Shown piece by piece: positions 3,907 through 53,138 of a stretch of 64,000 nucleotides of DNA; within the stretch, counting starts at the first letter, position 1, and the number at the start of each line of letters is the position of its first letter. The notes beneath the pieces are model-generated. The model was not told where the DNA came from, did no database searches, and saw only the letters and a program-made list of their open reading frames with translations. The DNA comes from Actinomycetota bacterium. GTDB lineage: Bacteria; Actinomycetota; Geothermincolia; Geothermincolales; RBG-13-55-18. A program made the translations under genes and the position numbers. The stretch covers positions 62,005 through 126,004 of the forward strand of contig JAXHVT010000023.1 in NCBI GenBank assembly GCA_034188985.1, read 5' to 3'.

Positions 3907-3937
3907 TTGCGTTAGCAATGATTTCGAAGGGAGCACG

Positions 3938-6192: not shown

Positions 6193-6250
6193 ACGCTAGA
6201 TTCTTTCATCAACCGGATATGGATTCCGTAACGCGGGGTTAGGAGGAGAT

Positions 6251-6661: not shown

Positions 6662-6693
6662 CGCCTGTAAGGGAGGCTGGAGCTGAACTGAGG

Positions 6694-13310: not shown

Positions 13311-13457
13311 GGCCGGTGACCGAGGTCTTATATAAGGGTTAAAACCAGGCGCTCGACTCCAGGCGGCGGGGTTTGGCAATATGATTCGGGAAAGCGTTGT
13401 TCAGTAACGGATAAGCCGCATTGCCGGCGGGTTTATATACGGTGGTGAAAAGAGGAT

Positions 13458-32138: not shown

Positions 32139-33330
32139 TAGCTGAATGGCCTCGATAAGGTTGGCTCCCTCCTGTACGCCGCCGCACAGGGTAGCCATAT
32201 CGTACCTGGCGCCTTTCTCCTTGAGGATGCGGGCCAGGGAGCAGGTGAGCATGGGCCCGGAACAGGCCAGGGGGTGGCCTATGGCGATAGTGCCCCCTTG
32301 ACGTTGACCTTCTCCGGGCCCAGTCCCAGCTCCCTGATGCCGTACAGGGTGATCACGGCGAAGGTCTCGTTTATCTCTCAGTACTCGATATCGCCAATAT
32401 CCATCGCAGCTTTCTACAGAGTCATCCTGGAGGCGGGGAACGGACCCACGCCCATTAAACCGGGATCGACGCCCGTCCATTCCATGGATACGACCCTCGC
32501 CAGGGGCTTGAGTCCCAGTGAATCGGCCTTGTTCTCGTTCATAAGGAGCACCGCGGTGGCCCCGGCGTTCAGGGATGAGGAGTTTCCGGCCGTTATCTGA
32601 CCATCGGGCTTGAAGGCCGGCTTGAGCTCGGCCAGCTTCTCCATGGTGGTGCTGGCGCGCATGGAGAGATCGGTGTCGAAGCGCTGCACGCTTCCGTCCT
32701 CCTGCTCCACCTCGACTGGAAGGATCTCGCCCGCGAAATAGCCCTCCTTTACCGCCCTTGCGGCTCTCTGGTGGCTGAACAGGGACCACTCGTCCATCTC
32801 CTCCCTGGTGATGCCAGACTGGCCATGGAGCTTCTCGGCGGTCAGCCCCATGCTCATAGCGGTCTGGAAATCGAGCTGCTTCAGGCTCTCGTCCTGGAAG
32901 AACCTGGGGTTTATAGCCATGAGGTCGGTGCTCCCCGGCGGATCCAGGGGAACGTGAGTCATGTGCTCCATGCCGCAGACCAGAACTAGGTCGGAACAAC
33001 CGAGAATTTTATCCATGGAACCCTGGTGGAGGGCGGACACCCCGGAGATACATACCCGGTCCATTCCCTGTGCCGGGGTGGTCACGGGCAGGCCGGCCAG
33101 GAAGGCAATGGTTCGACCGCCCATGAGGTAGTACGCATCTGCAGGGCGCAGCCCACCAGGAGGTCGTCGATATCCTCCGGGTTCACCTGGTTGCGGGACA
33201 GTATCTCCTTCACCAACAGAGACAGCGCATCGTCCATCCTCAACTTGTTGAAGGCGTCTCTCTCCGGTTGACGGGACCTGGATCTGGAGTAGGGGGCTCT
33301 GAGCATGTCCACGATAACCGCTTCGGTCAT
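32139..33330 (-). pseudogene. Acetyl-CoA acetyltransferase (thiolase) pseudogene with multiple lesions
   Basis: Thiolase homology is spread over three frames: N-terminus 33330-33130, middle 33124-32417, C-terminal fragments 32376-32139 (contains GHPLACSG). There is a frameshift near 33125-33135. In-frame TAG at 32414-32416 (GPFPASRMTL*KA). In-frame TGA at 32378-32380 (DIEY*EINETF). A frameshift sits in the C5 run at 32294-32298 (KGG/TIAIGHP). The native stop after ...IEAIQL is absent. Confidence 0.6.
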
Positions 33331-34219
33331 CTTTTCCTACTTTGGTTACGTTTCCCAGAATATATTAATCGTAGGTTAATACTATTGTGGTTCCGTATGT
33401 CTTAACGGAACTTAGGCCCGGGCATAGCATATATAGATGCCGTAATGGCTCTCGCGCGACCCAAGGCCCGCTTATGAGCCGAGAGGTTCCGGGATCCGAG
33501 ACCTTGCGGCTCTCCTTGAACGGTTGGGCTTGCCACCTGGGACCCGTTCGGATCATTCCAGCCTTATCCTGGGCATGAAGAGGGAGAGGGCGAAGGCCAG
33601 ACCAGCCACCACCACCGCCGTAAACACATGTGGCTTCAACAGGGTCGGTGCCGGCCCTTCAGACTCGGGCCGAAGAGACTTATAATAATGGTGGAAGGTT
33701 TCGGCCCGGGTCTGTGGTTGAAAGTCGATGCTAGCCGCAGGCGAAACGACCCACGTAAGCCAACTTTTTGTTGGTGAGCATGGTGCGGCTTAGGGGTAAG
33801 ACCTGCCCGGCTCAGATCCGGAGAAGCGCAATAGTGGCGGGCATTCCGGTAACCCTTGAAGGGCGGATTCCCGCTGCGAGCCGCTCAGCAGGCGAGTGTG
33901 GGGTCAAAGACCAGGTCAGCCGGGTTCGAAACCTTTTAATAAAAACGATGCTCCCCGCGGTTATACGCGGAGGCCTGGTGGGGGCCCCGCCGGAAGGGAA
34001 ACGACGGACGGGGACCCTGCGATGAGACGGCGTATCGAAAAGCGAGTGGGATTCGAGGGATTGTGTGGAGGCCCGGAAACGCGGGGTTCATATGGTGGTG
34101 GACTTTCTTGGCACAGGAATAAACCTGTGGTAGGCTTATGCGAGTCAAAAACGAGATAAACCGGGGCAGCCCCGGGTATTCGATGAGCTTATATAGCTTA
34201 TTTATAGGGATCGAGGTCG

Positions 34220-37938: not shown

Positions 37939-40599
37939 ATGCTCAAAGCACTGGGCAAAGTCCTGCGCATGGGGGAGCGCAAGCGGCTGGAACAATTTAT
38001 GGAGATGGCCCAGGTCGTAAACGACCTGGAACCGGAGGTCAAGAAGCTAGGCGACCAGGAGCTCAAGGCCAAGACGGATGAGTTCAGGTCGAGGCTGGAT
38101 AAGGGCCAATCGCAGGACGACATCCTTCCCGAGGCATACGCGGTGGTAAGGGAGGCGGCGGTCCGAACCCTGGGGCAGAGGCACTTCGACGTCCAGGTCG
38201 TGGGGGGCATAGTCCTGCACCAGGGCAAGATAGCGGAGATGAAGACCGGGGAGGGTAAGACCCTGGTTTCCACGCTTCCCGCCTACCTCGACGCCCTGCA
38301 GGGGAAGGGCGTACATATAGTAACCGTAAACGATTACCTGGCCCGACGCGATAGCGAGTGGATGGGAACCATCTACAGGTTTCTGGGTCTGGAGGTGGGG
38401 CTTATACAGGCCCAGATGCCCAAGGATATCAGGAAAGTGGCCTACGGGGCGGATATCACCTACGGTACCAACAACGAGTTCGGTTTCGATTACCTCCGCG
38501 ACAACCTGGAGGCGAATCCCGAGCGCATGGTACAGCGCGGTCACAATTACGCCATCGTGGACGAGGTCGACTCCATCCTGATAGACGAGGCCAGAACCCC
38601 GCTCATAATATCCGGTGCCTCGGAGGAATCCGCCCGCCTCTACCGCCAGTTCTCGGGGGTGGCCCCGCGCCTGAAGGAAGGCCAGGACTACGAGGTGGAG
38701 GAGAAATCCCGCACCGTGGCCGTGACCGAGGAGGGCATCCGCAAGGTGGAGGGTATCCTGGGGCTGGATAACCTCTACGATCACGTCAACACGCCCCTGG
38801 TTCATCACCTGCAGAACGCCCTCAAGGCCAAGGAGCTCTACCGGCGTGACGTGGATTACGTGGTCAAGGAAGGGCAGGTGGTCATCGTGGACGAGTTCAC
38901 CGGCCGCCTCATGCCGGGCCGCAGGTGGAGCGATGGCCTGCACCAGTCCGTGGAGGCCAAAGAGAACCTCAAGGTCAGGCAGGAGAACCAGACCCTGGCT
39001 ACTATCACCCTGCAGAACTACTTCCGTATGTACGACAAGCTGGCCGGCATGACCGGCACGGCGGCCACGGAGGCGGGCGAGTTCGAGGAGATATACGACC
39101 TGGAGGTGGTGGTTATCCCCACCAACGAGCCCATGATACGCGAGGACAACAACGACGTCATCTACAAGAACGAGGAGGCCAAGTTCAACTCCGTGGTGGA
39201 GGATATCGCATCCTGCTACGAGAGGGGCCAGCCGGTCCTGGTGGGAACCATATCCATCGAGAAGTCGGAGATCCTCTCGGATATGCTCAAGAAGAGAGGC
39301 ATCAAGCACCAGGTCCTCAACGCCAAGCAACACGCCAGGGAGGCGGAGATAGTGGCCCAGGCCGGGCGCCTGGGAACGGTTACCATAGCGACCAACATGG
39401 CCGGACGGGGTACGGATATCATGCTCGGGGGCAACCCAGAGAAGATGGCCCGTAAAACAATCACCGGCAGGTTTATAGACAGCGAGGAGGAATGGGAGGG
39501 CATCCTCGAGGAGGTAGGCGAGGAGGAGTGGAACCAGGTTTACCGGGAGACACTCGGTGAATGCGAGGAGGAGAAGAGCAAGGTAATCGAGTTGGGGGGC
39601 CTGTACGTTCTGGGCACGGAACGCCACGAGGCCAGGCGCATCGACAACCAGTTGCGGGGCCGTTCCGGCCGGCAGGGGGATCCCGGGTCCTCACGATTTT
39701 ACCTGTCCTTGGAGGACGACCTGATGAGGGTCTTCGCCGCTAGCGCCGTATCCTCCCTGATGGAGAGGTTCCGTTTTCCCGAGGACGTCCCCATCGAGAA
39801 CAAGATGGTTACCAAGGCCATAGAGACGTCGCAGAAGAACGTGGAGGCCAACAACTTCGAGACAAGGAAGAACCTTCTCAAGTACGACGATGTCATGAAC
39901 ACTCAGCGAGAGGTTATCTACGAGGAGAGGGATAAGATACTGCTGGGTCAGGATCTCCAAGCCCAGGTGGAGGAGATCATACCCGACGTGATAGAGGACG
40001 TCCTGATGAGGTATATCGATCCCCAGGCGGATCCCTCGGACTGGGATCTCGAGGGCCTCTTTCTGTACATAAAAGGGCTATTCCCGGCCAGCTTCGATAT
40101 CGGGGATATCGACATGGAGGTGGTGAGCCCGGAGGGTCTCAAGGAAGCCCTGGTGGAAGACGCTACGGAGGCTTATTCCAGGAGGGAGGAGGAGTTCGCC
40201 GAATCCGGCGAGGACATAAGGGACCTGGAGCGGCTGGTAATGCTCAGGGTCGTCGACAACCGCTGGAGGGATCACCTCTACGATATGGATCATCTCCGGG
40301 ACTCCGTAGGCCTGCGTTCCATGGCTGGTCGCGACCCGCTTATCGAGTACCAGAACGAGGCCTTCAGTACCTTCCAGGAGCTCACCTTCAACATCCAGGA
40401 GGAGTTCCTACGCTACATGTATCACGTCAAGGTGGTCAAGGCGGAGGAGCGACCATCCCTCCACCTGGTGGAGGAAGGTATAGGGGGAGAGAAGAAGAAG
40501 AAGCCCGCGCAGGCCCGCTCCCAGAAGGTGGGGAGAAACGCTCCATGCCCCTGTGGGAGCGGAAAGAAGTACAAGCACTGCTGCGGCAAGAGCGTTTGA
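37939..40599 (+). CDS. secA: Preprotein translocase ATPase SecA
   Basis: 886 aa. N-terminus [37 protein letters not shown]..., Walker [10 protein letters not shown]-terminal zinc finger [14 protein letters not shown]. Confidence 0.95.
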
Positions 40600-40698
40600 T
40601 TATCATGGGAAGACGCCGCCGGTCTCCGGGGCTTACCGGAGGCGGCACAGCTGGATTGTGAGATCGGATAGGGACTTGGATAATGCGAGGTTGATAGG

Positions 40699-41803
40699 AT
40701 GCTTGGCGATCATGTAAGCGAACTGGAGGGGTTGGCCGGCAGGCTCGTGAAGATAAAGGAGTATCTTTGACATAGAAGGTAAAAGGAGCCGGGTGGCCGA
40801 GCTCGAGAAACAGAGCGCCAGGCCCGATCTCTGGGATGACCAGGAGAATGCCCGGCGCCTGTTGGGGGAGCTCTCCAATACCAAGGAACTGGTGGATAGC
40901 TGGGAGAGGCTATCGGGGGACAGCGGGGAGTTGGGCGAGTTGATCCAGTTGGCAAGGGAGGAGGATGACTCCAGCCTCAGCGAAGAGATAATCCAGGGCG
41001 TGGAAAGGCTGCGACGTGAGGTGAATCGGCTGGAGGAGGAGAGTCTCCTGGGCGGAGAGCTTGACTCCCACGACGCCATCGTCAGCATCCATCCTGGAGC
41101 GGGTGGGCTGGAATCCCAGGACTGGGCTGAGATCATGCTGCGGATGTACCTGCGTTGGGCGGAGTCGAGGGGGTTCAAGGTGGATCTCAACGACGTGCAG
41201 CCCGGGGATGGAGGCGGGATTAAGAGTGCCACCTTTACCATTCATGGCCACAACGCATACGGTCTTTTCATGTCTGAGAAAGGCGTTCACCGCCTGGTGC
41301 GCATCTCCCCCTTCGACGCCTCGCATCGCCGCCACACCTCCTTCGCCTCACTGGACGTGATCCCCATGCTGCAGGAGACGGGCGAGATCGAAATAGACCC
41401 CAAGGATCTCCGCGTGGAGACCTACAGGTCGAGCGGGGCCGGGGGGCAGCACGTTAACGTCACCGATTCGGCCGTGCGCATCACCCACGAACCCACGGGC
41501 ATTGTCGTTTCCTGCCAGAACGAGCGTTCTCAGATATCCAATCGTCAGACGGCCATGCGCATATTGGAGGCACGGCTGGCTGAGCGGGTGCGGCAGGAGC
41601 GGGAAAAGAGGATAGAGAAGCTGCGGGGCGAGAGGAAGGATATCGGCTTCGGGAGCCAGATACGCTCCTACGTACTCCATCCCTATCGCATGGCCAAGGA
41701 CCACCGAACCGATCTGGAGATAGGCAACGCGGACGCCGTGCTGGACGGCGACCTGGACGACCTCGTCGACTCCTACCTGCGCTGGAAGGCCACCCCCGAC
41801 TAA
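40699..41803 (+). CDS. prfB: Peptide chain release factor 2, programmed +1 frameshift at CTT TGA C (40765-40771)
   Basis: Frame 0 runs ATG 40699...AAGGAG TAT CTT TGA (40768-40770). The +1 frame continues GAC ATA GAA GGT... into the RF2 body. GGQ appears as SSGAGGQHVNVTDSAVRITH. ORF track only reports 40793-41803. Confidence 0.9.
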
Positions 41804-41817
41804 GATGAGGCCAGGCG

Positions 41818-41836
41818 CTTACATCGGACATTTTCA
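41818..41836. repeat. Dispersed repeat family, partial copy B1 (CTTACATCGGACATTTTC)
   Basis: Matches the 3' arm of copies A and D. Confidence 0.4.
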
Positions 41837-41925
41837 TATCGAAAGCGTGGGAAAACACCCGTCCTCGAGCCTGAGGGGCACCAAAGGACAGCGGCGCCAT
41901 CGCAACCGTTTTTACTCTGGACCTG

Positions 41926-41966
41926 CAAAATGTCAGATGTGAGTGACCCCGTCTTCTGAGGTTTTT
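41926..41966. repeat. Dispersed repeat family, copy B2 (inverted orientation)
   Basis: Its reverse complement, aaaaacctcagaagacggggtcactcacatctgacattttg, aligns with copy D. Confidence 0.5.
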
Positions 41967-42007
41967 GGGTGCAGGTGTTAGTATAATAGGCGCTTTGAAA
42001 GGAGAAG

Positions 42008-42763
42008 GTGACGGTGAACGAAAAGCGTGGCTACGACATCAAGGTGGATCTGCACGTTCATACCATTTCAAGCGGGCACGCCTATTCCACGGTGGAGGAG
42101 TGTGTGCGAAGCGCCTCGGAGAAGGGGCTGGAGGCTATCGCCATCTCCGATCACGGGCCGGCTATACCCGGATCCGGCAACCTTTATCATTTCCGGAACA
42201 TGAAGGTGTTGCCGCGTTGCTGGCATGGCATATGGGTATTGCGTTCAGTCGAGGCAAACATACTGGATACGGAGGGAAACCTGGACCTGCCGGACAAGGT
42301 CCTCAACAGCCTGGACGTGGTTCAGGCCGGCCTTCATCCCTATACCGGATACCAGGGTGAGAGCCGGGAGGAGAATACGGAGGCCCTTATAGGCGCCCTG
42401 TCACATCCTCTGGTGGATGTCATCGCACACCCCGACAATCCCAACTATCCCGTGGACATGGAGAGAGTGGTGGAGGCGGCGGTCGGTGAGGGCAAGGCAC
42501 TGGAGATAAACAACAGCTCCTTTGTATATACCCGCGACGGCAGTGAGGAGATATGCTTGGAGATGGCTCGGGAAATAAAGCGAAAAGGAGGGTACGTAAC
42601 GGTGGGAAGCGACGCTCATGTGGCCACTTTTGCAGGAGAATTTTCGCGGGCGGTAGAAATATTACTCGAAACTGACATAGCTCCTCATAGCGTGATAAAC
42701 TACTCCATCGGGAGGCTGGCGGATTTTCTGCGGTCAAGGGGCAGGGAGCTTATCCTGGAGTGA
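42008..42763 (+). CDS. PHP-domain phosphoesterase (YcdX/histidinol-phosphatase family)
   Basis: VDLHVHTISSGHAYSTVEE...ISDHGP...DVIAHP...GSDAHV metal-binding motifs. GTG start. A TATAAT -10 sits at 41982-41987. Confidence 0.7.
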   Translation: MTVNEKRGYDIKVDLHVHTISSGHAYSTVEECVRSASEKGLEAIAISDHGPAIPGSGNLYHFRNMKVLPRCWHGIWVLRSVEANILDTEGNLDLPDKVLNSLDVVQAGLHPYTGYQGESREENTEALIGALSHPLVDVIAHPDNPNYPVDMERVVEAAVGEGKALEINNSSFVYTRDGSEEICLEMAREIKRKGGYVTVGSDAHVATFAGEFSRAVEILLETDIAPHSVINYSIGRLADFLRSRGRELILE

Positions 42764-42797
42764 GGGAGAGAGGTAGCGAAGAGGGAAGGAAGTCGAT

Positions 42798-43670
42798 ATG
42801 AGCGTCGATACGAGAGGATCGGAAGGTGTCGGTTTGAGGGAAGGCGAAGCGAGGGAGATGCAGGGCAAGCTGGAATCTGTTTCCAGAGATATCCGTTGGG
42901 ATATAGTCCGCATGATAGGGCTAGCTGGAAGCGGGCATCCCGGTGGCTCCCTCTCCTGCGTGGAGATACTCGTATCTCTCTATCTCTATAAGATGAACCA
43001 CAACCCCAAGAAGCCGGACTGGCGCCTTCGCGACCGTTTCGTACTCTCCAAGGGACATGCGGCTCCCGCCCTCTACGCCGTGCTGGCCAGGTGCGGATAT
43101 TTCGATCGCGAGGAGCTGTGGAAATTGAGACAGCTCGGTTCCATCCTGCAGGGTCACCCGGACAGGATCGGCACACCGGGGGTGGAGATATCTACGGGAT
43201 CCCTGGGACAGGGGCTCTCCGCCGCCTGCGGCATGGCCCTGGGATTGCGCATGGAGGATATGACCTCGATGGTCTATGCGCTGGTCGGCGACGGAGAGAG
43301 CCAGGAGGGGAATATCTGGGAGGCGGCCATGCTGTCGGCCCACCATTGTCTGGACAACCTGGTGGTGATCACCGATCGTAACAACATGCAGATCGACGGC
43401 AGGTGCTGCGAGGTGGTCAGCATGGATGGATTGGCCGACAGGTGGAGTTCCTTCGGCTGGGATGTCCAGGAGGTGGACGGCCATGACGTTCTGGCGCTCT
43501 GCGACGCGCTGGACCGCGCCGGTGGGACTCCGGACCAGCCGAGCATGATAATAGCCGATACCGTGAAGGGAAAAGGCGTTTCCTTCATGGAAAATGTCCT
43601 GGAGTTCCACGGCAAGGCTCCCACCCTCGAGCAGATGGAAGAGGCTCTGAAGGAGATCGAGCGCTCTTGA
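42798..43670 (+). CDS. Transketolase, N-terminal subunit
   Basis: GSGHPGGSLS...GHAAPALYA...GSLGQGL...GDGESQEGNIWEA thiamine-diphosphate-binding motifs. Split-gene form. Confidence 0.85.
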   Translation: MSVDTRGSEGVGLREGEAREMQGKLESVSRDIRWDIVRMIGLAGSGHPGGSLSCVEILVSLYLYKMNHNPKKPDWRLRDRFVLSKGHAAPALYAVLARCGYFDREELWKLRQLGSILQGHPDRIGTPGVEISTGSLGQGLSAACGMALGLRMEDMTSMVYALVGDGESQEGNIWEAAMLSAHHCLDNLVVITDRNNMQIDGRCCEVVSMDGLADRWSSFGWDVQEVDGHDVLALCDALDRAGGTPDQPSMIIADTVKGKGVSFMENVLEFHGKAPTLEQMEEALKEIERS

Positions 43671-44614
43671 TACCCGATAGAGGCAGTAAACACACCCGCG
43701 AGGGATACGCGGAGGCTCTCCTGGAGCTGGGAGAAAAGGATCCCCGTATAGTGGTGCTCGATGCCGACCTGGCCAAGTCCACGAAGACCGAGAAATTCGC
43801 ACAACGTTTTCCCGAGCGCTTCGTGGACTGCGGCGTGGCCGAGCAGAACCTCATGACCACCGCCGCCGGATTGGCGGCCACCGACAAGATCGTTTTCGCC
43901 TCCACCTTCGCCATGTTCGCTACCGGGCGCGCCTACGACCAGGTACGCAACACTATCTCTTATTCGAGGCTCAACGTGAAGATATGTGCTACCCACGGCG
44001 GTATAACTGTGGGCGAGGACGGCTCGTCCCATCAGGCGCTGGAGGATGTAGCTCTGATGAGATTGATACCGGGCATGCAGGTGGTTGTTCCCGCGGACTA
44101 TATCGAGGCCCGCGAGGCGGTGAAGGCGGTGGCCTATATCGACGGGCCCTTCTATGTGCGGCTGGGTCGGCCGAGCGTGCCCGTTCTCTACGATGACGAT
44201 TACCGTTTCGACTTCGGAAGGGCCGTCAGCATGCGTTCCGGGAAGGACGTGAGCATCATGGCCTGCGGGCTGATGGTCTATAAAGCCCTGGTGGCGGCCG
44301 AACAGCTGGCGGACGAAGGTATAGAGGCCGAAGTCTTGAACGTGCATACCATCAAACCCCTGGACGAGCAAGGCCTGCTGGAATCGGTATCGATAACCGG
44401 AAGGGTGGTTACCTGCGAAGATCATACCGTTTTGGGGGGTTTGGGCGGGGCGGTGGCCGAGTTGCTGGGAGAGAGGATGCCCGCGCCCATGCGCCGAATA
44501 GGGATAAGGAATCATTTCGGCGTCTCCGGCAAGGCGGATGAGCTGGTGGAACATTTCGGCCTCAGCCCCCGTCACATCGCCGAGGCGGCACGTGACCTGT
44601 GCGAGTCGGGATAG
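43667..44614 (+). CDS. Transketolase, C-terminal subunit
   Basis: TTG start overlapping the upstream stop (TTGA). Pyrimidine-binding and C-terminal domains (...EDGSSHQALEDVALMRLIPGM...). Confidence 0.85.
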   Translation: MIPDRGSKHTREGYAEALLELGEKDPRIVVLDADLAKSTKTEKFAQRFPERFVDCGVAEQNLMTTAAGLAATDKIVFASTFAMFATGRAYDQVRNTISYSRLNVKICATHGGITVGEDGSSHQALEDVALMRLIPGMQVVVPADYIEAREAVKAVAYIDGPFYVRLGRPSVPVLYDDDYRFDFGRAVSMRSGKDVSIMACGLMVYKALVAAEQLADEGIEAEVLNVHTIKPLDEQGLLESVSITGRVVTCEDHTVLGGLGGAVAELLGERMPAPMRRIGIRNHFGVSGKADELVEHFGLSPRHIAEAARDLCESG

Positions 44615-44657
44615 GATCGAAAGAGCGGATCGAGAGAATACGAGGAGATGATGACGC

Positions 44658-45341
44658 GTGATCCGTATGAGAAGGGTCACCAAGGTATATAAGGGCAACG
44701 TATTCGCACTGGAGGACGTTACCCTGGACATCGAGAAAGGGGAGTTCGCCTTCCTGGTGGGACCCTCCGGCTCTGGAAAGACGACCTTCATAAAGCTTCT
44801 GATCAAGGAGGAGGAACCCACCCAGGGGCAGATATACATTGCGGATACCAATATCGGCCAGATGCGCAAGTGGAAGGTACCCTACCTGAGGCGTAAGATG
44901 GGAACGGTTTTCCAGGATTTCAAGCTGTTGCCCCACAAGACCGTATTCCAGAACGTGGGATACGCCATGGAGGTGACGGGGAAGAGCCGGCGCCTCATCG
45001 ACCAGCAGGTACCGGAGGTTCTCAAGCTGGTGGGACTGGGCCACAAGCTGGATTCCTTCCCGGACGAGCTCTCCGGCGGCGAGCAGCAGCGTGTGGCTAT
45101 AGCCAGGGCTTTCATCAACCGCCCTCCTATCCTACTGGCCGACGAGCCCACCGGGAACGTCGATCCCTCCCTGGCCGAGGGTATCGTGCGCCTGCTTGAG
45201 AAGATCAATTCCGGCGGCACCACGGTGATCATGGCCACCCATGACAAGCAGATAGTCAACGCCTTCCGCAAGCGGGTGATCGCCATGGAAAACGGGCGTA
45301 TAATCCGCGACCAGGACAGGGGCGTGTACGGATATGAATAG
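44658..45341 (+). CDS. ftsE: Cell-division ABC transporter ATP-binding protein FtsE
   Basis: GTG start. Walker A GPSGSGKTT, signature LSGGEQQRVAIARA, Walker B ILLADEPTGN. Confidence 0.9.
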   Translation: MIRMRRVTKVYKGNVFALEDVTLDIEKGEFAFLVGPSGSGKTTFIKLLIKEEEPTQGQIYIADTNIGQMRKWKVPYLRRKMGTVFQDFKLLPHKTVFQNVGYAMEVTGKSRRLIDQQVPEVLKLVGLGHKLDSFPDELSGGEQQRVAIARAFINRPPILLADEPTGNVDPSLAEGIVRLLEKINSGGTTVIMATHDKQIVNAFRKRVIAMENGRIIRDQDRGVYGYE

Positions 45342-46233
45342 CGTAAAGTACTTCACCTCCGAGACCTGGGCTTCCCTGCGCAAGAACATCATCCTGGCCG
45401 TGGCCGCCATAGCCGTGGTCTGCGTTTCCCTGGCCATCCTCGGGCTGGTGGTCATGGGATGGGACATGTTCAGCAACATGATAAAAAACGCCGAGCGCAA
45501 AGTGGGGGAGATCGACATATACCTGACGGACCTGACCATGGAGGAGGAACGCCAGGCCATACAGGATTTTATCATCTCCATACCGGAGGTTGATCCCAAC
45601 ACGGTGGTTTACAAGACCAAGGGAGAGGCGCTGGAGGAGTTCAAGGAGCGCTTCTCCGACCAGCCGGAGCTGTGGGAATACATACAGGAAAACCCCCTGC
45701 CCAACTCCTTCGAACTCATGACCAAGGACCCCAAGAACGTGGGCGTGGTAGTCAGCAAAATCGATGTCGAGTCGCCGTACAGGGAACGCATCGAGGATAT
45801 CCGTTCGGCCAGTTCGGCCATCGAGAAGCTGGAGAATATCTTCGACAAGTTTCGCCAGATAGGCATCGTGGCCGTGGTGGCGCTGGCCGTGGTGGCCATA
45901 CTGCTGGTGTCGGTAACCATACAGGTGGCCATCTTCGCCCGCCGCAGGGAGATCGGCATCATGAAACTGGTGGGCGCCACCAACTGGTTCATCCGCTGGC
46001 CTTTCCTCCTGGAGGGGGTTTTCGAGGGGCTGGTGGGTTCGCTGGTGGCCGTCCTGGTGGCGCTGGCCGTAAAGGTGTGGATCCTGGACAGGCTTGTCGA
46101 GAACCTGGCATTCTTAAGGCTGTCTTTCTCATCGGGCCTGCTCGCGGTGCTCATCCCCTGCATGCTGGTGGGGGGTATAGTTATCGGCGCGCTGGGCAGC
46201 GCCTACGCTCTGGGGCGTTTCCTGGAGGTGTGA
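45334..46233 (+). CDS. ftsX: Cell-division ABC transporter permease FtsX
   Basis: 4-TM FtsX topology with a large periplasmic loop. 8-nt overlap with ftsE. Confidence 0.85.
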   Translation: MNSVKYFTSETWASLRKNIILAVAAIAVVCVSLAILGLVVMGWDMFSNMIKNAERKVGEIDIYLTDLTMEEERQAIQDFIISIPEVDPNTVVYKTKGEALEEFKERFSDQPELWEYIQENPLPNSFELMTKDPKNVGVVVSKIDVESPYRERIEDIRSASSAIEKLENIFDKFRQIGIVAVVALAVVAILLVSVTIQVAIFARRREIGIMKLVGATNWFIRWPFLLEGVFEGLVGSLVAVLVALAVKVWILDRLVENLAFLRLSFSSGLLAVLIPCMLVGGIVIGALGSAYALGRFLEV

Positions 46234-46273
46234 TCCTCCTCATCAGGTACAATAGAACTGGCGAGATAATCCC

Positions 46274-47551
46274 ATGAGAGAAAAAATGACCCGCCGCGAG
46301 AGGAATATCCTCATCCTGGTGGTCGCCCTGTCCCTGATAGTGGTGGCCTCCTGTTTCGCCTTGCCCTATATCCTGCGATCCAGGGATTCCTCCACCTCTT
46401 CGTCGGGCGAATCGGGCCCGGAATCCGAAAACCTCGTGGAGCTGCTTGAGGGCAGCGAGGCCTACCGCGACGCGCGGGACATCGTGGAGAGAAATTACGT
46501 GGAGGAGGTGGACGGCGACGATCTTCTCGAGGCGGCGGAGAAGGGCATGCGCAGGATGGCCGAGGAGGGCTACGACGATGAGGAGCTGGTGGAAAGGGGC
46601 ATCGTGGCCATGATAGATTCCCTGGAGGATCCCTTCTCGTCCTACATGGACGCCAGGCAGGTGGAGATGCTGGATACCCAGCTCGCCGGGCATTTCTCGG
46701 GTATCGGGGTGGCCATGCAATCGGTGAAGAACGAGATCCGTGTGGTGGAGGTGCTCAAGAATACTCCGGCCGAGGAGGTCGGCCTGCAGGAGGGAGATAT
46801 CATCAGGGAGGTTGACGGTGCCGACGTGACGGATATGGCGCTGGACGAAGTGGTGATGCTTATCAGGGGCCCCGAGGGTACGACCGTGAACCTGGGGATC
46901 TTGAGGGCACCCTCCTCCAGCCTCGAGTATTACGATATCGTCAGGCGGGAGATAGAGCTGCCGGTCATAGAATACGAGATGAAGGAGGGAGACATAGGGT
47001 ACCTCAGGCTGACGGACTGGACCGAGGACGTTGATGCAAAGCTCACGGAGGTATTGAGGGAACTCAAGTCCCAGGGGGCCAAGGGCCTGGTGCTGGACCT
47101 GCGGGGAAACACGGGGGGCTATATGGATCCGGCCATCCGGGCGGCGGACCTCTTTCTGCACGGCGGCGTGATAGTGACCAGCAAAGGCCGCATCGGGGGC
47201 GCGTCCAACGAGTACGAGGTGGACGACGCGGTGGAGTGGGACCTGCCCGTCGTGCTCCTGGTGAACCGGGGCTCGGCCAGCTCGTCTGAGATCTTCTCCG
47301 CCGCCCTGCGCGATAACGACCGCTGCCTCCTGGTGGGCGAGACCACTTTCGGCAAAGGCTCTATCCAGAAGTTATACCGGCAGGATGACGGGACCGCACT
47401 GAAGCTGACCATCGCCCTCTACTACACTCCCTCGGGGATCAACATCACCGACGAGGGCATAGAGCCGGACGTGTTCGTCAAGAACCCAGTGGTGGGGGAT
47501 GAGGATCTGCAACTGCGGGAAGCCCTCGAGTTGGTCTCAACAGAGATTTGA
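46274..47551 (+). CDS. ctpA: Carboxyl-terminal processing protease (S41) with PDZ domain
   Basis: PDZ (GDIIREVDGADV), catalytic Ser context LVNRGSASSSEIFSAAL, and the Lys region. Confidence 0.85.
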   Translation: MREKMTRRERNILILVVALSLIVVASCFALPYILRSRDSSTSSSGESGPESENLVELLEGSEAYRDARDIVERNYVEEVDGDDLLEAAEKGMRRMAEEGYDDEELVERGIVAMIDSLEDPFSSYMDARQVEMLDTQLAGHFSGIGVAMQSVKNEIRVVEVLKNTPAEEVGLQEGDIIREVDGADVTDMALDEVVMLIRGPEGTTVNLGILRAPSSSLEYYDIVRREIELPVIEYEMKEGDIGYLRLTDWTEDVDAKLTEVLRELKSQGAKGLVLDLRGNTGGYMDPAIRAADLFLHGGVIVTSKGRIGGASNEYEVDDAVEWDLPVVLLVNRGSASSSEIFSAALRDNDRCLLVGETTFGKGSIQKLYRQDDGTALKLTIALYYTPSGINITDEGIEPDVFVKNPVVGDEDLQLREALELVSTEI

Positions 47552-47555
47552 TCGC

Positions 47556-47768
47556 TCAGTTGGAGGGCGGGGATTCCACGGCTACATTCAGTATAAACTG
47601 GAACTCCGTCAGCTCCCTTTCCCTTACCGAGCCCCTCTGTTCCGCCACCTGGAAGAAATGCACCTTGTCATCCGATGCGACATTTCCTCCGCCGCGCCCC
47701 TCACCGCCTCGGAATAACCTATGGGCGATGTGTCGGATACCTCCCTGAATACGAGCATTTTCACCCTC
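47556..47768 (-). pseudogene. Dodecin-family flavin-binding protein, disrupted by a 1-nt frameshift
   Basis: Minus-strand ATG at 47768 with SD GGAGGGTG. Frame 1 gives MLVFREVSDTSPIGYSEAVRGAAEEMSHRM, then stops. The +1 frame continues DKVHFFQVAEQRGSVRERELTEFQFILNVAVESPPSN*. Junction at ATGAC, inferred ancestral ATGGAC, near 47655. Confidence 0.5.
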
Positions 47769-48289
47769 CTTTTCTTCTCCCTGTTCGGATACTCACCCGC
47801 GAAGGCGGTGAAAAGGTTGCCGTCGCGAGTGAGCGCCGTTGAGGACCGGCCGCTCGAAGAGCCGGTCTACGATATTGTTCCCTCTTGATCGCGATGAAAA
47901 CCAGTTGGCCCATCCACCGCGAATACGGGCATGCCGGTGCTGGTGATGCAGCGCCCCTGCGAAGAGCTGGTTGAAATCCAGGCGTCATGTAAGGGGCGAA
48001 AGAGGGGTTAGCAGACGGTCGGGATTATCGTATTCGAACTGCAATAGGATAGAATTGCCGTAAGACTTGACGCGGTGAGCATGAACGAGATAGCCTTACG
48101 GCTTATGGCGCGCAGGACCCCGTGGCAGCCCGAGTAGCGATGGAACGTCGCGGGGGTGCGCCGTCCGTTGAAATCCTCGTGGGCGGCGGGGGTCCGTCGG
48201 GCTGGAGAGAAGTTCCGGGGCGACTCGAGGACGTTGGGGTAGAGAGAGCGGAACGCAATCAGGAGGTAATGGGGTTGACCGGAGGCTGC

Positions 48290-50281
48290 ATGGGAGAGGT
48301 ACTGGTGGTGAACCTGTCCGATTGCGACAGCGAGAAGCAGGAGGTACCCGAGGATGTTTACCGGGATTTCATAGGGGGCTATGGGCTGGGCGCATGGTAT
48401 ATATATCGTGGCCAGCCCAAGGGAGTTGATCCCATGGGCGATAAGGCCGTCCTGGGTTTCCTCCCCGGACTTCTGGGGGGTACCTCCGTGCCCTTCAGCG
48501 GCAGGTTCATGATAGCGGGCAAGTCCCCCCTTACGGGTGGATGGGGCGACTCGAACGGCGGAGGTCATCTCTCCCCCGCCATAAAGGCCGCGGGATACGA
48601 CGGGATATTTGTCACGGGCGTTTCGCCGGATCCCGTGTATGTAGTGATCAGAGGAAAAAAAGTAGAGATAAAGAGCGCCTCCCATCTCTGGGGAAAGGAT
48701 ACGGTGGAGACGGAGGAGATAATCCGGAGAGAGACCGGAGACCCCAGGCTGCGCGTGGCCTGCATAGGACCGGCGGGTGAGAAGAGGTCGCTACTGTCGG
48801 GGGTGGTTACTGAGGGAGGAAAGAGCGCCTCCGGCTCGGGGCTTGGGGCGGTGATGGGCTCCAAGGGACTCAAGGCCCTGGCGGTAAGCGGCAGACGGGA
48901 GACGCCCCTGGCTCGGGCCTTGGAGCTCGGAGAGCTCAACCGCCATTACCTGGACGGTTACGGCCGTTCCTCGTATCTGGGTCGAGCGGCTGCCAGGAGG
49001 ATAAGGATTCTCAGCAGCCTGCCGCGTTTCGTGCCCTCCAGGCTGTGGCGCAAAGCGCCGGTTCTAAAGGAGCTGTTACGGGCTTACGGCACGGCCGCCT
49101 GGACGACCGCCGCGGTGGGTCTGGGCGACTGCCCGGTAGGGAATTTCGCCGGCGGAGGCTTTGTCGATTTTCCCTTCAATGGCAGGGCGGGGGCCGTAAG
49201 CGGATGGGAGCTCGAGCGTTACCGCGTCAGGAGATACCACTGCCACGATTGCCCCCTGGGCTGCGGTGGCATATACGTTCTGGAGGAGGGTCCTTACGCG
49301 GTGGAGCAGTCCCTTGGGCCAGGATACCGGGCACTGGCCGCCTTGGGGCCCGACTGCATGTGCTCCGACCTCAAGGCTATCTTGTACATGAACGACCTGC
49401 TCAACCGGGCGTGTATGGACGTTGAGGCCGCCGGGGTGGTCCTGTCCTTTGCCATGGAATGTTTCGAGAAGGGCGTTATATCCACTGCGGATACCGGGGG
49501 CCTCGAGCTGACCTGGGGAAACAGCCGGGCCATGGTCGAGATGGCAAGGAAGATGATCAGGAGGGAGGGGCTGGGAGAGATCCTGGCGGATGGAGTCGAC
49601 AGAGCGGCCCTGAGCCTGGGAAAGGGATGCGAGGAATGGGCCATGAGCGCCGGCGGCAATGAGCTGGCCATGCACGACCCCCGACGCGACCCCGCGGTGG
49701 GCCTGTCCTACGTCGTGGAGCCCGTGCCCGGACGTGTCGGTATATATGGCGCTCCACGTGCCGAAGTACAGGAGCTGGAATTCGATATGGAGGAGGCCGG
49801 CGGGCTTGCCCCGGAGTTCACCGGGGGGGGCGGAGGTGAACGGGAGGGGTCGGGTAGAGCGCTCGCTTTACGTAATCACTGGTCGCGGCTGCTGGACTGC
49901 TCAGGGCTCTGCCGCCTCGGAGCGGCCACCAGCGAGCTTCCGCTGGTGGAGTGGTTGAACGCCGTGACGGGCTGGGATCGTGATTTCGCCTTCTATCTGG
50001 AGGCGGGGGAGAGGATAGACGCCATCAGGCAGTGTTTCAATGCTAGGGAGGGCATAAGGCCGGAGAATATCGGCCTGCCAAACCGGGCCAGGGGAGTACC
50101 GCCCCTGGAAAAGGGACCCCTGGCGGGCGTGACCATCGATATCGAGTCCTCGCTGCATGCTTATCACGAGGCCATAGAATACGATCCAGAAAAAGGTTGG
50201 CCAAGCGAGAGGAAGCTGCGCCGGCTGGGCATGGTCTGGTGCCTGCCGGGCAAAGGCCAGAGGATGCAGTTCTTCCGCTAG
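48290..50281 (+). CDS. Aldehyde:ferredoxin oxidoreductase (tungsten-type AOR family)
   Basis: MGEVLVVNLSD...KSPLTGGWGDSNGGGHLSPAIKAAGYDGIFVTG... aligns with AOR N-terminal and catalytic domains. In-frame TTG 48275 or ATG 48269 are alternative starts. Confidence 0.85.
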   Translation: MGEVLVVNLSDCDSEKQEVPEDVYRDFIGGYGLGAWYIYRGQPKGVDPMGDKAVLGFLPGLLGGTSVPFSGRFMIAGKSPLTGGWGDSNGGGHLSPAIKAAGYDGIFVTGVSPDPVYVVIRGKKVEIKSASHLWGKDTVETEEIIRRETGDPRLRVACIGPAGEKRSLLSGVVTEGGKSASGSGLGAVMGSKGLKALAVSGRRETPLARALELGELNRHYLDGYGRSSYLGRAAARRIRILSSLPRFVPSRLWRKAPVLKELLRAYGTAAWTTAAVGLGDCPVGNFAGGGFVDFPFNGRAGAVSGWELERYRVRRYHCHDCPLGCGGIYVLEEGPYAVEQSLGPGYRALAALGPDCMCSDLKAILYMNDLLNRACMDVEAAGVVLSFAMECFEKGVISTADTGGLELTWGNSRAMVEMARKMIRREGLGEILADGVDRAALSLGKGCEEWAMSAGGNELAMHDPRRDPAVGLSYVVEPVPGRVGIYGAPRAEVQELEFDMEEAGGLAPEFTGGGGGEREGSGRALALRNHWSRLLDCSGLCRLGAATSELPLVEWLNAVTGWDRDFAFYLEAGERIDAIRQCFNAREGIRPENIGLPNRARGVPPLEKGPLAGVTIDIESSLHAYHEAIEYDPEKGWPSERKLRRLGMVWCLPGKGQRMQFFR

Positions 50282-50295
50282 CGAACGATATCACC

Positions 50296-50430
50296 AAGAA
50301 TGTCAGAAGACGCGGTCAGCCCCGAAAATCTGACATTTTCGTGAATCGGGAAGTGAATGATCCAGACGATATCGCTCTCTTGCGATAAGCCTCAGGCATG
50401 TATCCAGGCCTGATCCCGGTGCCTAAGGCA
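50296..50430. repeat. Dispersed repeat family, copy C (long form)
   Basis: aagaatgtcagaagacgcggtcagccccgaaaatctgacattttcgtgaatcgggaagtgaatgatccagacgatatcgctctcttgcgataagcctcaggcatg... aligns over ~130 nt with copy D. Confidence 0.5.
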
Positions 50431-50562
50431 TGGCGCGAACGCTGAGGTTGTTCGCGGCAATCCATGATTCCCGTGATAAAGCATGAATATGGCCATAGCT
50501 CAACCCCGCTAGTTTGGCAATTTGTGGGTGATAATTTAAGATAAAAGATGCGACCCCACAAA

Positions 50563-51812
50563 TATTTCACATCGGGTTGCATCAGTAAGCGGGGACTATT
50601 GAAAGGGCATTCACCGGGCAGATCGAAACACATACACCGCAACGTTCGCAGAGTTCGAGCTCTATTTCCGGCTTGTCCCGGTTCACGGTAACCGCTCCGT
50701 AGATACAGGCGGAGCATTTACCGCAACCGTCGCACTTGTCCTAGCTCAAAACCAGGCGAAGGGTATCGGGCTCGGCGGCTGAGGCCATGAAACGGGAGAG
50801 GAACTCATCGAGGTTATATATTTGGGGCAAGGCGAGTCCGATCATATCCGGAACCCGCTCGTAGCCTTTTCTATTTATGAAGCGCCCGACGCCTACGATC
50901 GTATCCGTAAGAGCCTTGTAGCCCTTGTATTGGACCGCGCTCTCGAGGGCGGCCACAGTCGCCCCGAACATCAGGCGTTCGACGGCGTCCTTCCAGGTCC
51001 AGATGCCACGCTGCTGATGATGTGCAACTCGGTTCCATTGGCCGAGAGGTAGGCGACGTAATTTCCGAGACCTCTCAACCAGCGTCCGTAGCCGAAAGGG
51101 ACGTTGATGGGAGGGCTAGCCGTCTGCATATCCAGAGAAGTGATCCGGAAATCGCTGTAGACGTGTAGCGCTCCCGCGCCCCGGTCCCACATCTCGGCGA
51201 TATAGCGGTTCCAGTATACGTCGTGGTTAAACCCGAGTTTCAACCGGAAGGGAATCCCGAGGTGACCGTCGAGCGCCTCTAACGCCAGAGGAACGGCACT
51301 CTCGAGGAAGGTGGCGGTGTCACTGGGGGACAGGGACATGCCGCAGGTCCCTCGATGGCATCCGAGCCGGCTTCCTCGAGCTGCGTTATCATCACCCTCA
51401 GGGCTACCTCCGCTGGCGGCGATATCTCCTCGCAGGGGGACAGGCCGCTCCAGGGGTTGACCATGAATACGCCTCCTACGATCCGCGCGTCCTCACTCTC
51501 GGCCGGATCCTTGGAAGCGCTTACGCATTCGACGGCTTTCTCCAGGGGCAGAAGCCCCGAGTAATAGTTCATGAGAGTGCAGCGGTCGCCTATACCATAG
51601 TAAAACCAGTTGTCCGGACGGGGCGGAAGCTGCGCCAGTGGATCCAGACAGACGTGTTTTAGAACCAGCGCGCCTACGCCGGCTTCGATACAGCACTTGA
51701 TGGTATACGGTGCCGAGGCGATGGGACCCGCCGCATCTGCTATCGAATTCTTGAAACGCATCCCCGAGAACTCGACTTCCATTTCAGGCATTGTGTCGTA
51801 GCTCCACTTCAC
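50563..51812 (-). pseudogene. PreA/dihydroorotate-dehydrogenase-like flavoprotein with C-terminal 2x[4Fe-4S] ferredoxin domain, fragmented
   Basis: Four consecutive minus-strand pieces. 51812-51279 is a DHOD-like TIM-barrel N-terminus (VEFSGMRFKNSIADAAGPIA...). 51339-50974 and 50971-50744 are in other frames. The ferredoxin segment DKCDGCGKCSAC...CERCGVCVSICP (50738-50563) follows an in-frame TAG at 50741-50743. The pieces sum to ~420 aa, typical for PreA. Confidence 0.45.
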
Positions 51813-52026
51813 TTGCCTTACATCCCGGTGCTATCCCCCTTCAGGCTGGGGGTTGACGGCGGCCAGGAGCGTCTCAATACGGGATTTGTAACAAGCCCAC
51901 GATTCGTCCCCGGATCTAATCCGTGTCATCTTATTGTTCATGAACGCGGTCAGCCCGTCGAATGACGAGTATCCGTCAATATAATGACAATGTGTTCGAT
52001 ATTCGACAGGCTGACCCAATAAAAAA

Positions 52027-52374
52027 TGGTGGAGGCGGGGGGAGTCGAACCCCCGTCCAGAAACCCGGCCCAGTGGGCTCTACGAGTGTATTCGCCGGTT
52101 ACATTCGCCCCCGGGAAGCCCGGCGAAAGGCTGACCCGGTGACTATCCCGTTAAGGATGTCCCTAAGCCCTTACGGGAGTCGGGCTTCGGTGATCCCGCT
52201 AAACGACGCCCCTTCCCCGGTCGCGGGCCTCCCGGAGAGGAACGGGTCGCGTTATTACGCGGCCAGAGCTAACTCGCTGTCAGCATCTATTGGTTTTCCC
52301 GATTCTTAACGGGGTTCGGGGCCCCGGCTCGCTCCCGCTCGAACCGCCGATCCCTGTCGAAGCCGTTTCGCCCC
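52027..52374 (-). ncRNA. ssrA: tmRNA (SsrA)
   Basis: Minus strand reads 5'-GGGGGCGAAACGGCUUCGACAGGG...GGACGGGGGUUCGACUCCCCCCGCCUCCACCA-3'. Acceptor stem has a G3:U70 pair. Tag ORF GCT GAC AGC GAG TTA GCT CTG GCC GCG TAA TAA encodes ADSELALAA. Lies downstream of smpB. Confidence 0.85.
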
Positions 52375-52497
52375 CACGTTTTCAATGTCCAATGGATAAT
52401 CGATATCCTACCAATATTTTAGCACCTGAAGTCCGAGGCTGTATCGCACACGACCATGGCGGGCACGATCGCCGGGCATACCCCGGCGCTAAGTTCT

Positions 52498-52974
52498 CTA
52501 CCTTTCCCGGCCCTTCTTACTGCCAGTTTTCAAGGTTCTCTCCATGTCCCGCCGGGCCTCCCTTTCCATGATGTCGCGCCGGCGGTCGGCCTTCAGTTTT
52601 CCTTTGGCCAGCCCGAGTTCAACCTTTATCTTTCCCCGGTCGGTCGTGTACAGGCTGAGCGGGATCAGGGTATACCCCTTCTCGGCCACCTTGCCCTCCA
52701 GGCGGCGTATCTCATGTTTGTGCATGAGAAGCTTCTTGTCCCTCAAGGGCTGGTGGTCGAAGGCGCCGCCGTGGCTGTAGGGGGCGACGTGCATATTCTC
52801 CAGGAACAGCTCTCCGCCCTTGATCCTGGCGAAACTGTCCCTGAGATTGGCCCTGCCCTCACGGATGGACTTGACCTCGGAACCCAGCAGGGACAGGCCC
52901 GCCTCGAATTTTTCCTCTATATGGTAGTCATGCCTGGCCTTGCGATTCTCGGCCAGCGTTTTCAACCTGCTCAT
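52498..52974 (-). CDS. smpB: SsrA-binding protein
   Basis: MSRLKTLAENRKARHDYHIEEKFEAGLSLLGSEVKS... Start moved to the ATG at 52974 with a GGAGG SD; the ORF track starts at an upstream TTG. Confidence 0.9.
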   Translation of the reverse strand: MSRLKTLAENRKARHDYHIEEKFEAGLSLLGSEVKSIREGRANLRDSFARIKGGELFLENMHVAPYSHGGAFDHQPLRDKKLLMHKHEIRRLEGKVAEKGYTLIPLSLYTTDRGKIKVELGLAKGKLKADRRRDIMEREARRDMERTLKTGSKKGRER

Positions 52975-53138
52975 GATTCCTCCACGCAAGGGTCTTTGTG
53001 ACTATGATAACCCAGCCCGTGGTGGCTTGTAAGATACCCGGGCGGATTCCACATGCTGTTGGACGGGATCGCCCCATCCACGATACTCCTTCGAGGCGAG
53101 TCGGCCCTTTCGAGATCCCTGCTGCGTAACAGGCCGGC

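Follow-up and report, generated by a model that had tools for sequence, protein, structure and literature searches.

Two disrupted genes and an open aldehyde:ferredoxin oxidoreductase frame stripped of catalytic residues adjoin the tmRNA gene of an uncultured Actinomycetota

Bacterial genes that erode under relaxed selection are recognised by colinear homology running across several reading frames, by lesions of mixed type and by surplus substitutions at conserved sites, while ribosome-binding sites and codon bias are kept and the housekeeping neighbours stay intact. Three kinds of redox protein are relevant to the locus described here. The tungsten aldehyde:ferredoxin oxidoreductase (AOR) of Pyrococcus furiosus (PfAOR, PDB 1AOR) represents the WOR family and combines the AFOR_N and AFOR_C domains with CxxCxxxC...C cysteine ligands and a DxxGLC second pterin motif. 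Its conserved second-shell catalytic residues are Thr243, Glu313, Tyr427 and His448 (PMC12096430, PMC13328260), among which Glu313 and His448 have been described as universally conserved (PMC12096430). Escherichia coli PreA, a subunit of NAD-dependent dihydropyrimidine dehydrogenase, joins a C-terminal 2x[4Fe-4S] ferredoxin domain to a class-1 DHOD-like TIM barrel, and bacterial dodecins have been solved from Streptomyces (6r1e, 6ri3), Thermus (2vyx, 2v18) and M. tuberculosis (3oqt).

Relatives of all three occur side by side in a 4.5-kb stretch adjoining the tmRNA gene in a metagenome-assembled genome of an uncultured Actinomycetota (locus tags SWK76_), which was analysed as part of a window, that is, the whole stretch of DNA studied, of 64,000 nucleotides. 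The block is bounded by ctpA and ssrA and is laid out as follows.

47556-47764, minus strand: dodecin pseudogene, with an ATG start at 47758, an intact ribosome-binding site (AAGGAGG) and a net -1 frameshift at 47667-47668
47765-48274: divergent spacer of 510 bp between the dodecin and AOR genes
48275-50281, plus strand: AOR-family gene (MDY6794653.1), an open frame of 668 codons with an intact ribosome-binding site (AGGAGG, 48261-48266)
50582-51791, minus strand: PreA-like pseudogene (DHOD-like barrel plus 2x[4Fe-4S]), with homologues of ~405 aa that are 51-59% identical
52027-52375, minus strand: tmRNA gene (ssrA), with its 3' end facing the cluster

The erosion of these three redox genes is most probably ordinary gene decay, with assembly error and recoding as very improbable causes. 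With a probability of roughly 80%, the dodecin, AOR and PreA-like genes are unrelated accessory genes that are all eroding through ordinary mutation without selective upkeep. The phenomenon is already known and nothing essential sets this case apart from ordinary bacterial pseudogenes, the sole twist being an AOR whose reading frame is intact and which carries the substitution signature of decay.

The minus-strand dodecin frame changes only once, and one base inserted between ATG (47671-47669) and AAG (47666-47664) restores a protein of 67 aa. Like the solved bacterial dodecins in length, the repaired protein passes the Pfam dodecin threshold (PF07311, 34.1 bits against 22.5) and aligns without gaps to 6r1e, 6ri3 and 2vyx over residues 5-60. 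However, it misses the NCBIfam dodecin equivalog cut-off (31.5 vs 75), has Asp in place of the GTS-motif Gly and, when aligned to 6r1e and 2v18, has Phe (HFFQV) for the DWFEV Trp that stacks on the flavin. The gene has neither this Trp nor an intact frame. No database protein shares enough 5-residue words with it to serve as a close homologue, and its divergence is thus without calibration. The original prediction of a 1-nt deletion holds as far as the single net -1 frameshift is concerned; the specific change given, ATGGAC to ATGAC, is just one among several equivalent repairs. In the neighbouring spacer, no gene relic was found by Pfam searches of six-frame peptides, no RNA element was detected (Rfam at E<=1; fold z-score -0.44), and comparison with the sequences upstream in relatives revealed nothing similar.

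The PreA-like gene is more heavily damaged. A tblastn search with the intact SURF_21 homologue recovered three segments that are colinear but lie in three frames (51791-51351, 51348-51010 and 51007-50588; joint E 8.6e-138), and codon-level comparison with homologues positioned the lesions as listed.

51349-51350, minus strand: frameshift 1, a 7-nt deletion (homologues GAG GTG GTC TGC ACC, window GAG GG ACC)
51008-51009, minus strand: frameshift 2, loss of 1 nt from the codon for the first Gly in the conserved motif SSGGIW (AGC AGC G-T GGC)
50741-50743, minus strand: in-frame TAG, a GAG-to-TAG nonsense change where homologues have GAG, GAC, GAA or GTC (Glu, Asp or Val)
50585-50740, minus strand: stranded C-terminal 2x[4Fe-4S] ferredoxin domain (Fer4 families, colinear alignment)

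The gene is indeed split into four pieces, with the TAG directly before the ferredoxin domain, as had been noticed from the reading frames; the lesion sites suggested at 50965-50975 and 51280-51340 are ORF ends, and the frameshifts lie elsewhere. In the NCBI annotation the pseudogene appears as three hypothetical proteins (SWK76_05135, SWK76_05140 and SWK76_05145). It belongs to a small, uncharacterised family (24 hits) with eight invariant ferredoxin cysteines, and at nine positions that do not vary among 19 homologues it has changes of its own, compared with 0-2 in close homologues. The family resembles E. coli PreA in domain order and length (~405-411 aa), but both the repaired window protein (85.6 bits) and the intact homologue P0002 (117.5 bits) fall far under the cut-off of the PreA equivalog NF006183 (335 bits), and no PreT-type partner gene was found adjacent in the window or in the related contigs L015, L016 and L017. 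In SURF_21, the neighbours of the homologue are a 388-aa Cys-rich Fer4 protein and ATC_hydrolase. Both the dodecin gene, with one frameshift, and the PreA-like gene, with two deletions and one nonsense codon, are probably already dead, and the retention of their ribosome-binding sites, codon bias and third-position GC content suggests that they were inactivated recently.

The AOR-family gene had been described as intact and tungsten-type. Its reading frame is open, and it has what defines the WOR family, namely AFOR_N (224.7 bits), AFOR_C (287.8 bits) and four [4Fe-4S] cysteine ligands, since CHDCPLGC and DCSGLC align to Cys288, 291, 295 and 494 of 1AOR in columns that are invariant among homologues; the DxxGLC motif is also shared with 1AOR. 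The 'tungsten-type' label would follow from family membership, as the sequence does not identify the metal. The description as intact does not hold for the catalytic and cofactor motifs, which have changed from HKPEYET to LGPGYRA, from GRH to GRV and from TIS to VEA, along with R183K, R187G and G380C, all by point substitution and without hidden frameshifts. In the alignment with 1AOR, E352R falls on Glu313, and H488V falls on His448 if the alignment is gapless. Thus, of the second-shell residues, Thr243 is kept, Tyr427 is His as throughout the subfamily, Glu313 is Arg and His448 is Val, the equivalents of the latter two being invariant in 118 of 118 homologues. In addition, Lys and Gly replace the equivalents of Arg182 and Arg186, and a Gly of the first pterin motif is Cys, whereas the other 118 members examined of this ~660-aa subfamily keep those residues.

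These losses are accompanied by a marked rate asymmetry. Among 138 AOR sites invariant in 15 outgroups, 16 are lost in the window, the equivalents of PfAOR Glu313 and His448 among them, and 2 in each sister (p=0.0013), and Tajima-type counts of ~94 vs ~38 (relative-rate, p ~1e-6) correspond to a rate ~2.5x that of the sisters. The window protein is also an outlier in the set of 119 formed with 118 homologues: columns that are otherwise invariant show 20 singleton deviations, of which it supplies 6, and 105 sequences supply none. Of the 10 syntenic orthologues shared by the window and the relative L018, the AOR shows the lowest conservation (57% vs 64-81%), whereas between L018 and a second relative, L022, it is average (84.6% vs 83-90%). 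The neighbouring GMC oxidoreductase gene, used as a control, evolves symmetrically (24 vs 21 and similar, p 0.2-1) and shows 0 changes at 45 invariant sites. Judged from these alignments, the protein has most likely ceased to function as an aldehyde:ferredoxin oxidoreductase, and a gene-specific relaxation of constraint probably allowed the replacement of the second-shell Glu and His and of several pterin-binding residues.

It is conceivable, though doubtful, that only the two neighbours are pseudogenes and that the AOR is a neofunctionalised or non-catalytic protein (a pseudoenzyme) kept under selection with a remodelled active site. The 668 codons are open behind an intact ribosome-binding site and start. 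Under strict neutrality, the ~56 extra substitutions would be expected to produce 2.2-2.9 nonsense codons, with a probability of none of 0.06-0.11 that falls further when frameshifts are counted, and scaling from the PreA-like gene gives ~3.6 expected disruptions (probability of none ~0.03-0.06). That the frame has stayed open is thus slightly unexpected, and some altered function may have been retained. Furthermore, replacing the catalytic residues took two nucleotide substitutions per codon, which suggests that the changes are not very recent, and the [4Fe-4S] cysteines, Thr243 and most glycines have been kept. However, the surplus substitutions are spread almost evenly over all conservation classes, as relaxed selection predicts, without focus on particular sites, and Arg, Gly and Ser of the pterin motifs were lost as well as the Glu and His. 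The changes recur in none of the 118 homologues, such variants therefore form no family, and the flanking genes on both sides are dead.

The PreA-like pseudogene raises a separate question, that of how it came to lie beside ssrA. The relevant features are these.

50282-52026: segment of 1745 bp that separates the AOR stop from the tmRNA 3' end, absent in syntenic relatives
50310-50322, plus strand: left copy of a 13-nt perfect direct repeat, ACGCGGTCAGCCC
51944-51956, plus strand: right copy, overlapping one arm of a 21-nt inverted repeat (51948-51968 / 51996-52016)

In L018 and L022, only 33 bp and 72 bp separate the stop codon of the AOR gene from the 3' end of the tmRNA gene, which places the pseudogene within a lineage-specific 1.7-kb segment and suggests that the site behaves as an indel-prone variable region. 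The 3' ends of ssrA genes are known integration hot spots. The segment could accordingly be what is left of an integrative or mobile element directed at the flank of ssrA, with the 13-nt repeats as a target duplication or att sites: it is missing in the syntenic relatives exactly from the AOR stop to the tmRNA 3' end, and the repeat brackets the PreA-like gene and has only two copies in the 64 kb (0.17 expected with <=1 mismatch). Such an origin is nevertheless unlikely. The searches turned up no integrase, no transposase and no terminal inverted repeats, and the repeat lies 70 nt beyond ssrA, outside the gene and without overlap, so that extra DNA relative to relatives is the one hallmark of an ssrA-targeted island that is present. 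Moreover, third-position GC content is inside the host range, homology to other PreA-like loci ends at the ends of the coding sequence, and 1 of 100 shuffles also gives two repeat copies. Gain here and deletion in the relatives are equally possible, and any role for the repeat is putative. Less credible still is a joint reading, in which the AOR was selectively kept as a pseudoenzyme or an enzyme of new chemistry (Glu313 to Arg, His448 to Val and an altered pterin pocket, with the fold and FeS site kept) and the PreA-like gene arrived beside ssrA as a cassette of one gene with the 13-bp repeats at its bounds. On the favoured explanation, ordinary decay, selection on the three accessory genes between ctpA and ssrA would have been relaxed, the 1.7-kb segment would have been gained here and not deleted in the relatives, and the ssrA 3' flank would be an indel-prone variable region where dispensable DNA arrives and decays.

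One further decayed gene lies elsewhere in the window.

~33330-32142, minus strand: thiolase pseudogene, with two frameshifts, a TAG at 32414-32416 and a TGA at 32378-32380

The repaired thiolase matches Thiolase_N (200 bits) and Thiolase_C (113 bits), which confirms the decay noted earlier. In the dodecin and PreA-like genes the lesions are defined against intact homologues, and the decay is most probably real. The other seemingly split ORF pairs are separate genes. The original prediction took the decayed genes as a sign of the ongoing loss of a redox/fermentation module. This idea found no support, as the three genes are syntenic in no relative, the PreA-like segment is lineage-specific, and the thiolase lies ~15 kb from the cluster with housekeeping genes in between. 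The genes form no conserved module and are unrelated to one another; they are accessory genes undergoing erosion where the genome is variable.

It is very improbable that the genes are intact in the organism and that the frameshifts and the stop stem from errors in sequencing or assembly, or from the consensus of a minority strain. The source is a metagenome-assembled genome, and in two of the three single-gene frameshifts one nucleotide beside a G was lost, but the Logan contig L013, an independent assembly of the same run (SRR24907504) from which the window also derives, is 100% identical over 39654-52056 (12,403 bp), and the lesions are thus not artefacts of one assembler, although intact alleles may exist as a minority. 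Locally poor assembly, which had been offered as an explanation, is also made unlikely by the presence of a 7-nt deletion and a G>T substitution, by the four lesions of mixed type in the thiolase, by the ~43 other window genes without breaks, and by the many surplus amino-acid changes at invariant sites of the broken genes, which indel errors cannot produce. Programmed recoding, with pyrrolysine or read-through at the TAG and ribosomal frameshifting at the shift sites, has nothing in its favour beyond the in-frame TAG and the frame changes and can be dismissed, as was anticipated, because every homologue has Glu, Asp or Val where the TAG stands and TAG is a normal terminator, neither specially placed nor depleted (43 intact window genes end in TGA 24, TAG 14 and TAA 5 times), while direct reading found no slippery motif (X_XXY_YYZ or homopolymer) at any frameshift site, frameshift 1 removes conserved codons, and no Pyl or Sec genes or tRNAs were found within the window.

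The locus adds nothing new on recoding, tungsten enzymology or mobile elements, and its main value concerns annotation quality. Because the PreA-like pieces are entered at NCBI as three independent hypothetical proteins, and the AOR as an ordinary enzyme, metabolic reconstructions would overcount the redox functions of this genome. More generally, an open reading frame adjacent to pseudogenes may itself be functionally dead, and a relative-rate test combined with a neighbouring-gene control offers a simple way to expose it.

The disruptions in the cluster are very probably genuine, and the broken dodecin and PreA-like genes are ordinary pseudogenes beside the tmRNA gene ssrA. The PreA-like gene was recovered by tblastn with an intact homologue as three colinear segments in three frames (joint E 8.6e-138), and its lesions were placed by comparing its codons with those of five or six homologous loci:

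51791-51351, 51348-51010 and 51007-50588, minus strand: segments matched with the intact homologue as query
51349-51350, minus strand: 7-nt deletion, GAG GTG GTC TGC ACC changed to GAG GG ACC
51008-51009, minus strand: 1-nt deletion within the conserved SSGGIW motif, in its first Gly codon
50741-50743, minus strand: in-frame TAG, in homologues GAG, GAC, GAA or GTC

Frames and codon comparison agree that the gene is broken, TAG included, as was expected from the sequence alone. The family is small (24 matches among 5.8 billion proteins), and these homologues, of ~405 aa and at most 59% identity, can be aligned over their full length with the repaired protein. The window copy carries 9 private changes at sites that 19 homologues leave invariant, and close homologues carry 0–2; indel errors are ruled out as the cause of such changes. 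Against a PreA cut-off of 335 bits the repaired protein scores 85.6 and an intact homologue 117.5, and no PreT partner was found; judged by its sequence, the protein has PreA architecture, but no PreA membership. In Actinobacteria bacterium SURF_21 (L015 8001-11169), an intact PreA-like gene is followed by genes for a Cys-rich 2x[4Fe-4S] protein of 388 aa and an ATC_hydrolase, with a TetR regulator ahead; the locus has the look of a flavo-FeS system that is uncharacterised and differs from PreAT. Downstream of the window gene, a remnant of the partner gene known from SURF_21 was considered and dismissed, as only ferredoxin-domain similarity was seen.

The frame of dodecin (minus strand) starts at ATG 47758 behind the RBS AAGGAGG and meets a stop, and the C-terminal two thirds are read in a different frame, to the stop at 47556. 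Adding one base between ATG 47671-47669 and AAG 47666-47664 restores a 67-aa dodecin that passes Pfam (34.1 bits, threshold 22.5), which confirms the disruption. No gaps are needed to align the repaired protein with bacterial dodecins of solved structure, and in this alignment the flavin-stacking Trp is Phe. In a large protein database no other protein shared enough 5-residue words with it, its own fragment being the sole match, and by these comparisons the window dodecin is very divergent.

The thiolase, also predicted to be decayed, indeed carries both stop types (TAG 32414-32416, TGA 32378-32380) and two frameshifts; once repaired, its two thiolase domains score 200 and 113 bits. A raiA RNA motif lies a few hundred bases from this pseudogene (33701-33928, plus strand; Rfam RF03072, 169.9 bits). 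Two further candidate split genes, at 3884-5015 and 6200-7854, were rejected, both ORF pairs being separate genes. The latter encodes a small membrane protein and, after it, a glycosyltransferase, while the former consists of overlapping ORFs with no frameshift (3938-4597 and about 4590-5015, plus strand) that, on a reading of the translations only, resemble an RHH-nucleotidyltransferase (MNT-like) and HepT/DUF86-like toxin-antitoxin pair.

The AOR (aldehyde ferredoxin oxidoreductase family) had been called intact and tungsten-type. Its frame is open (668 codons, RBS AGGAGG at 48261-48266) and the CxxCxxxC...C cluster ligands are retained along with both AOR domains, but its catalytic and pterin motifs are mutated. 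It was aligned with 15 outgroups and two sister AORs (P0043 and P0044, 57% identical): 16 of the 138 outgroup-invariant sites are changed in the window AOR and two in each sister (p=0.0013), and Tajima-type counts give ~94 changes specific to the window vs ~38 specific to the sister (p about 1e-6). The window AOR is also the outlier in a set of 119 subfamily members. Of 20 singleton deviations at columns that are otherwise invariant it holds 6, and 105 sequences have none. The altered motifs are:

LGPGYRA in place of HKPEYET
GRV in place of GRH
R183K and R187G
first pterin motif: G380C, and TIS changed to VEA

A hidden compensated frameshift behind these changes was excluded, since the motifs differ by point substitutions, with two in the same codon in many cases. 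E352R corresponds to Glu313 of the Pyrococcus furiosus enzyme in the 1AOR alignment, and H488V to His448 in gapless register; the literature describes both as universally conserved residues of the second shell, forming a proton relay (PMC12096430, PMC13328260). The window AOR is very probably devoid of canonical activity, and the 'tungsten-type' label derives solely from family membership. At residues about 505-545 (49790-49900), the Lys/Arg-rich loop of the sisters, ARKKRRYKWEGWGKD, gives way in the window AOR to a Gly/Glu-rich stretch, EFTGGGGGEREGSGRA, with no nucleotide-level alignment to L018, a syntenic relative.

Two syntenic relatives, L018 (JGI 3300068092, 66-kb contig) and L022, provided a control for rate. 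Identity of the window to L018 is 64-81% for nine neighbouring orthologues and lowest, at 57%, for AOR, while between L018 and L022 AOR is average (84.6% against 83-90%). The adjacent GMC oxidoreductase, for which an exhaustive search supplied 15 outgroups, shows symmetric rates (e.g. 24 against 21, p 0.2-1) and 0 changes at 45 invariant sites. By these comparisons the acceleration is specific to AOR. The excess is about uniform over conservation classes (+9, +11, +20, +13 and +8 percentage points), a pattern that a period of relaxed selection would produce. Alternatively, the window AOR may hold a retained, altered function: with ~56 extra substitutions, strict neutrality would lead one to expect 2.2-2.9 nonsense codons (probability of none 0.06-0.11), plus indels, which makes the open frame mildly surprising.

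From the AOR stop to the tmRNA 3' end there are 33 bp in L018, 72 bp in L022 and 1745 bp in the window, and because the gap is short in the relatives, the PreA-like pseudogene lies in a lineage-specific segment. This 1.7-kb segment may equally have been gained in the window lineage or lost in L018/L022. A perfect 13-nt direct repeat, ACGCGGTCAGCCC (50310-50322 and 51944-51956), absent elsewhere in the window, brackets the pseudogene; of the two copies, the right-hand one overlaps with a 21-nt inverted repeat (51948-51968 / 51996-52016). Neither an integrase nor a transposase was found, and a search for an att site in the form of a duplicated ssrA 3' end gave no direct repeat of it. Foreign composition was likewise discarded, since GC3 (0.70-0.745 vs 0.766+/-0.044 in other genes) is within the host range and not distinctive. 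Likeness to other PreA-like loci stops at the CDS. The three spacers of the cluster gave no significant Pfam or Rfam match to gene relics or RNA motifs (Moco-type riboswitch included), and their folding is ordinary; a B12-binding match upstream of AOR (E 0.047) was weak, and tblastn with the L018 B12 protein did not support it.

Upstream of AOR synteny stops, and the relatives have a 361-aa gene and methylmalonyl-CoA mutase genes in place of dodecin, ctpA and ftsX. No AOR or dodecin was found near PreA-like genes elsewhere, and their joint occurrence is absent in nine PreA-like loci. The proposed loss of a redox/fermentation module is therefore left without a conserved grouping, and the cluster is a variable region beside ssrA. 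L018 alone has a 282-aa gene (13142-13990) between smpB and a metallo-beta-lactamase gene, absent from the window and L022, which marks the smpB/ssrA neighbourhood as indel-prone in the lineage. In many Actinobacteria smpB and ssrA run in the same direction as ftsE-ftsX-ctpA; here smpB (52498-52989, minus strand) and ssrA (52027-52375, minus strand) are convergent with them. The window shares its tmRNA tag, ADSELALAA, with L018, L019 and L022.

Locally poor assembly, the other explanation in the original prediction, is very unlikely on several lines of evidence. The 12,403-bp Logan contig L013, assembled from the same run (SRR24907504), is 100% identical to 39654-52056, and the breaks are thus independent of any one assembler. 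Furthermore, the lesions are of mixed type, with a 7-nt deletion and substitutions included, ~43 other window genes are unbroken, and the private changes at invariant sites also speak against it. Logan contig breaks near ssrA were uninformative as a sign of strain variation because such breaks are frequent throughout the sample. Pyrrolysine or selenocysteine recoding, already thought unlikely, is rejected: homologues have Glu, Asp or Val at the TAG position, intact window genes use all three stops normally (TGA 24, TAG 14, TAA 5), the window tRNAs are limited to Gly, Pro, His, Arg and Leu, and none of the frameshift sites has a slippery motif.

By exact protein matches, the window is part of a 130,414-bp contig of the 'Actinomycetota bacterium' MAG from run SRR24907504 (locus tags SWK76_, proteins MDY67946xx), and a literature search with the run accession returned no papers. 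AOR is recorded at NCBI as MDY6794653.1, and the PreA-like gene as three separate hypothetical-protein fragments (SWK76_05135, 05140 and 05145). Pseudogene formation of this type is already known, and the practical worth of the case is the correction of the annotation.
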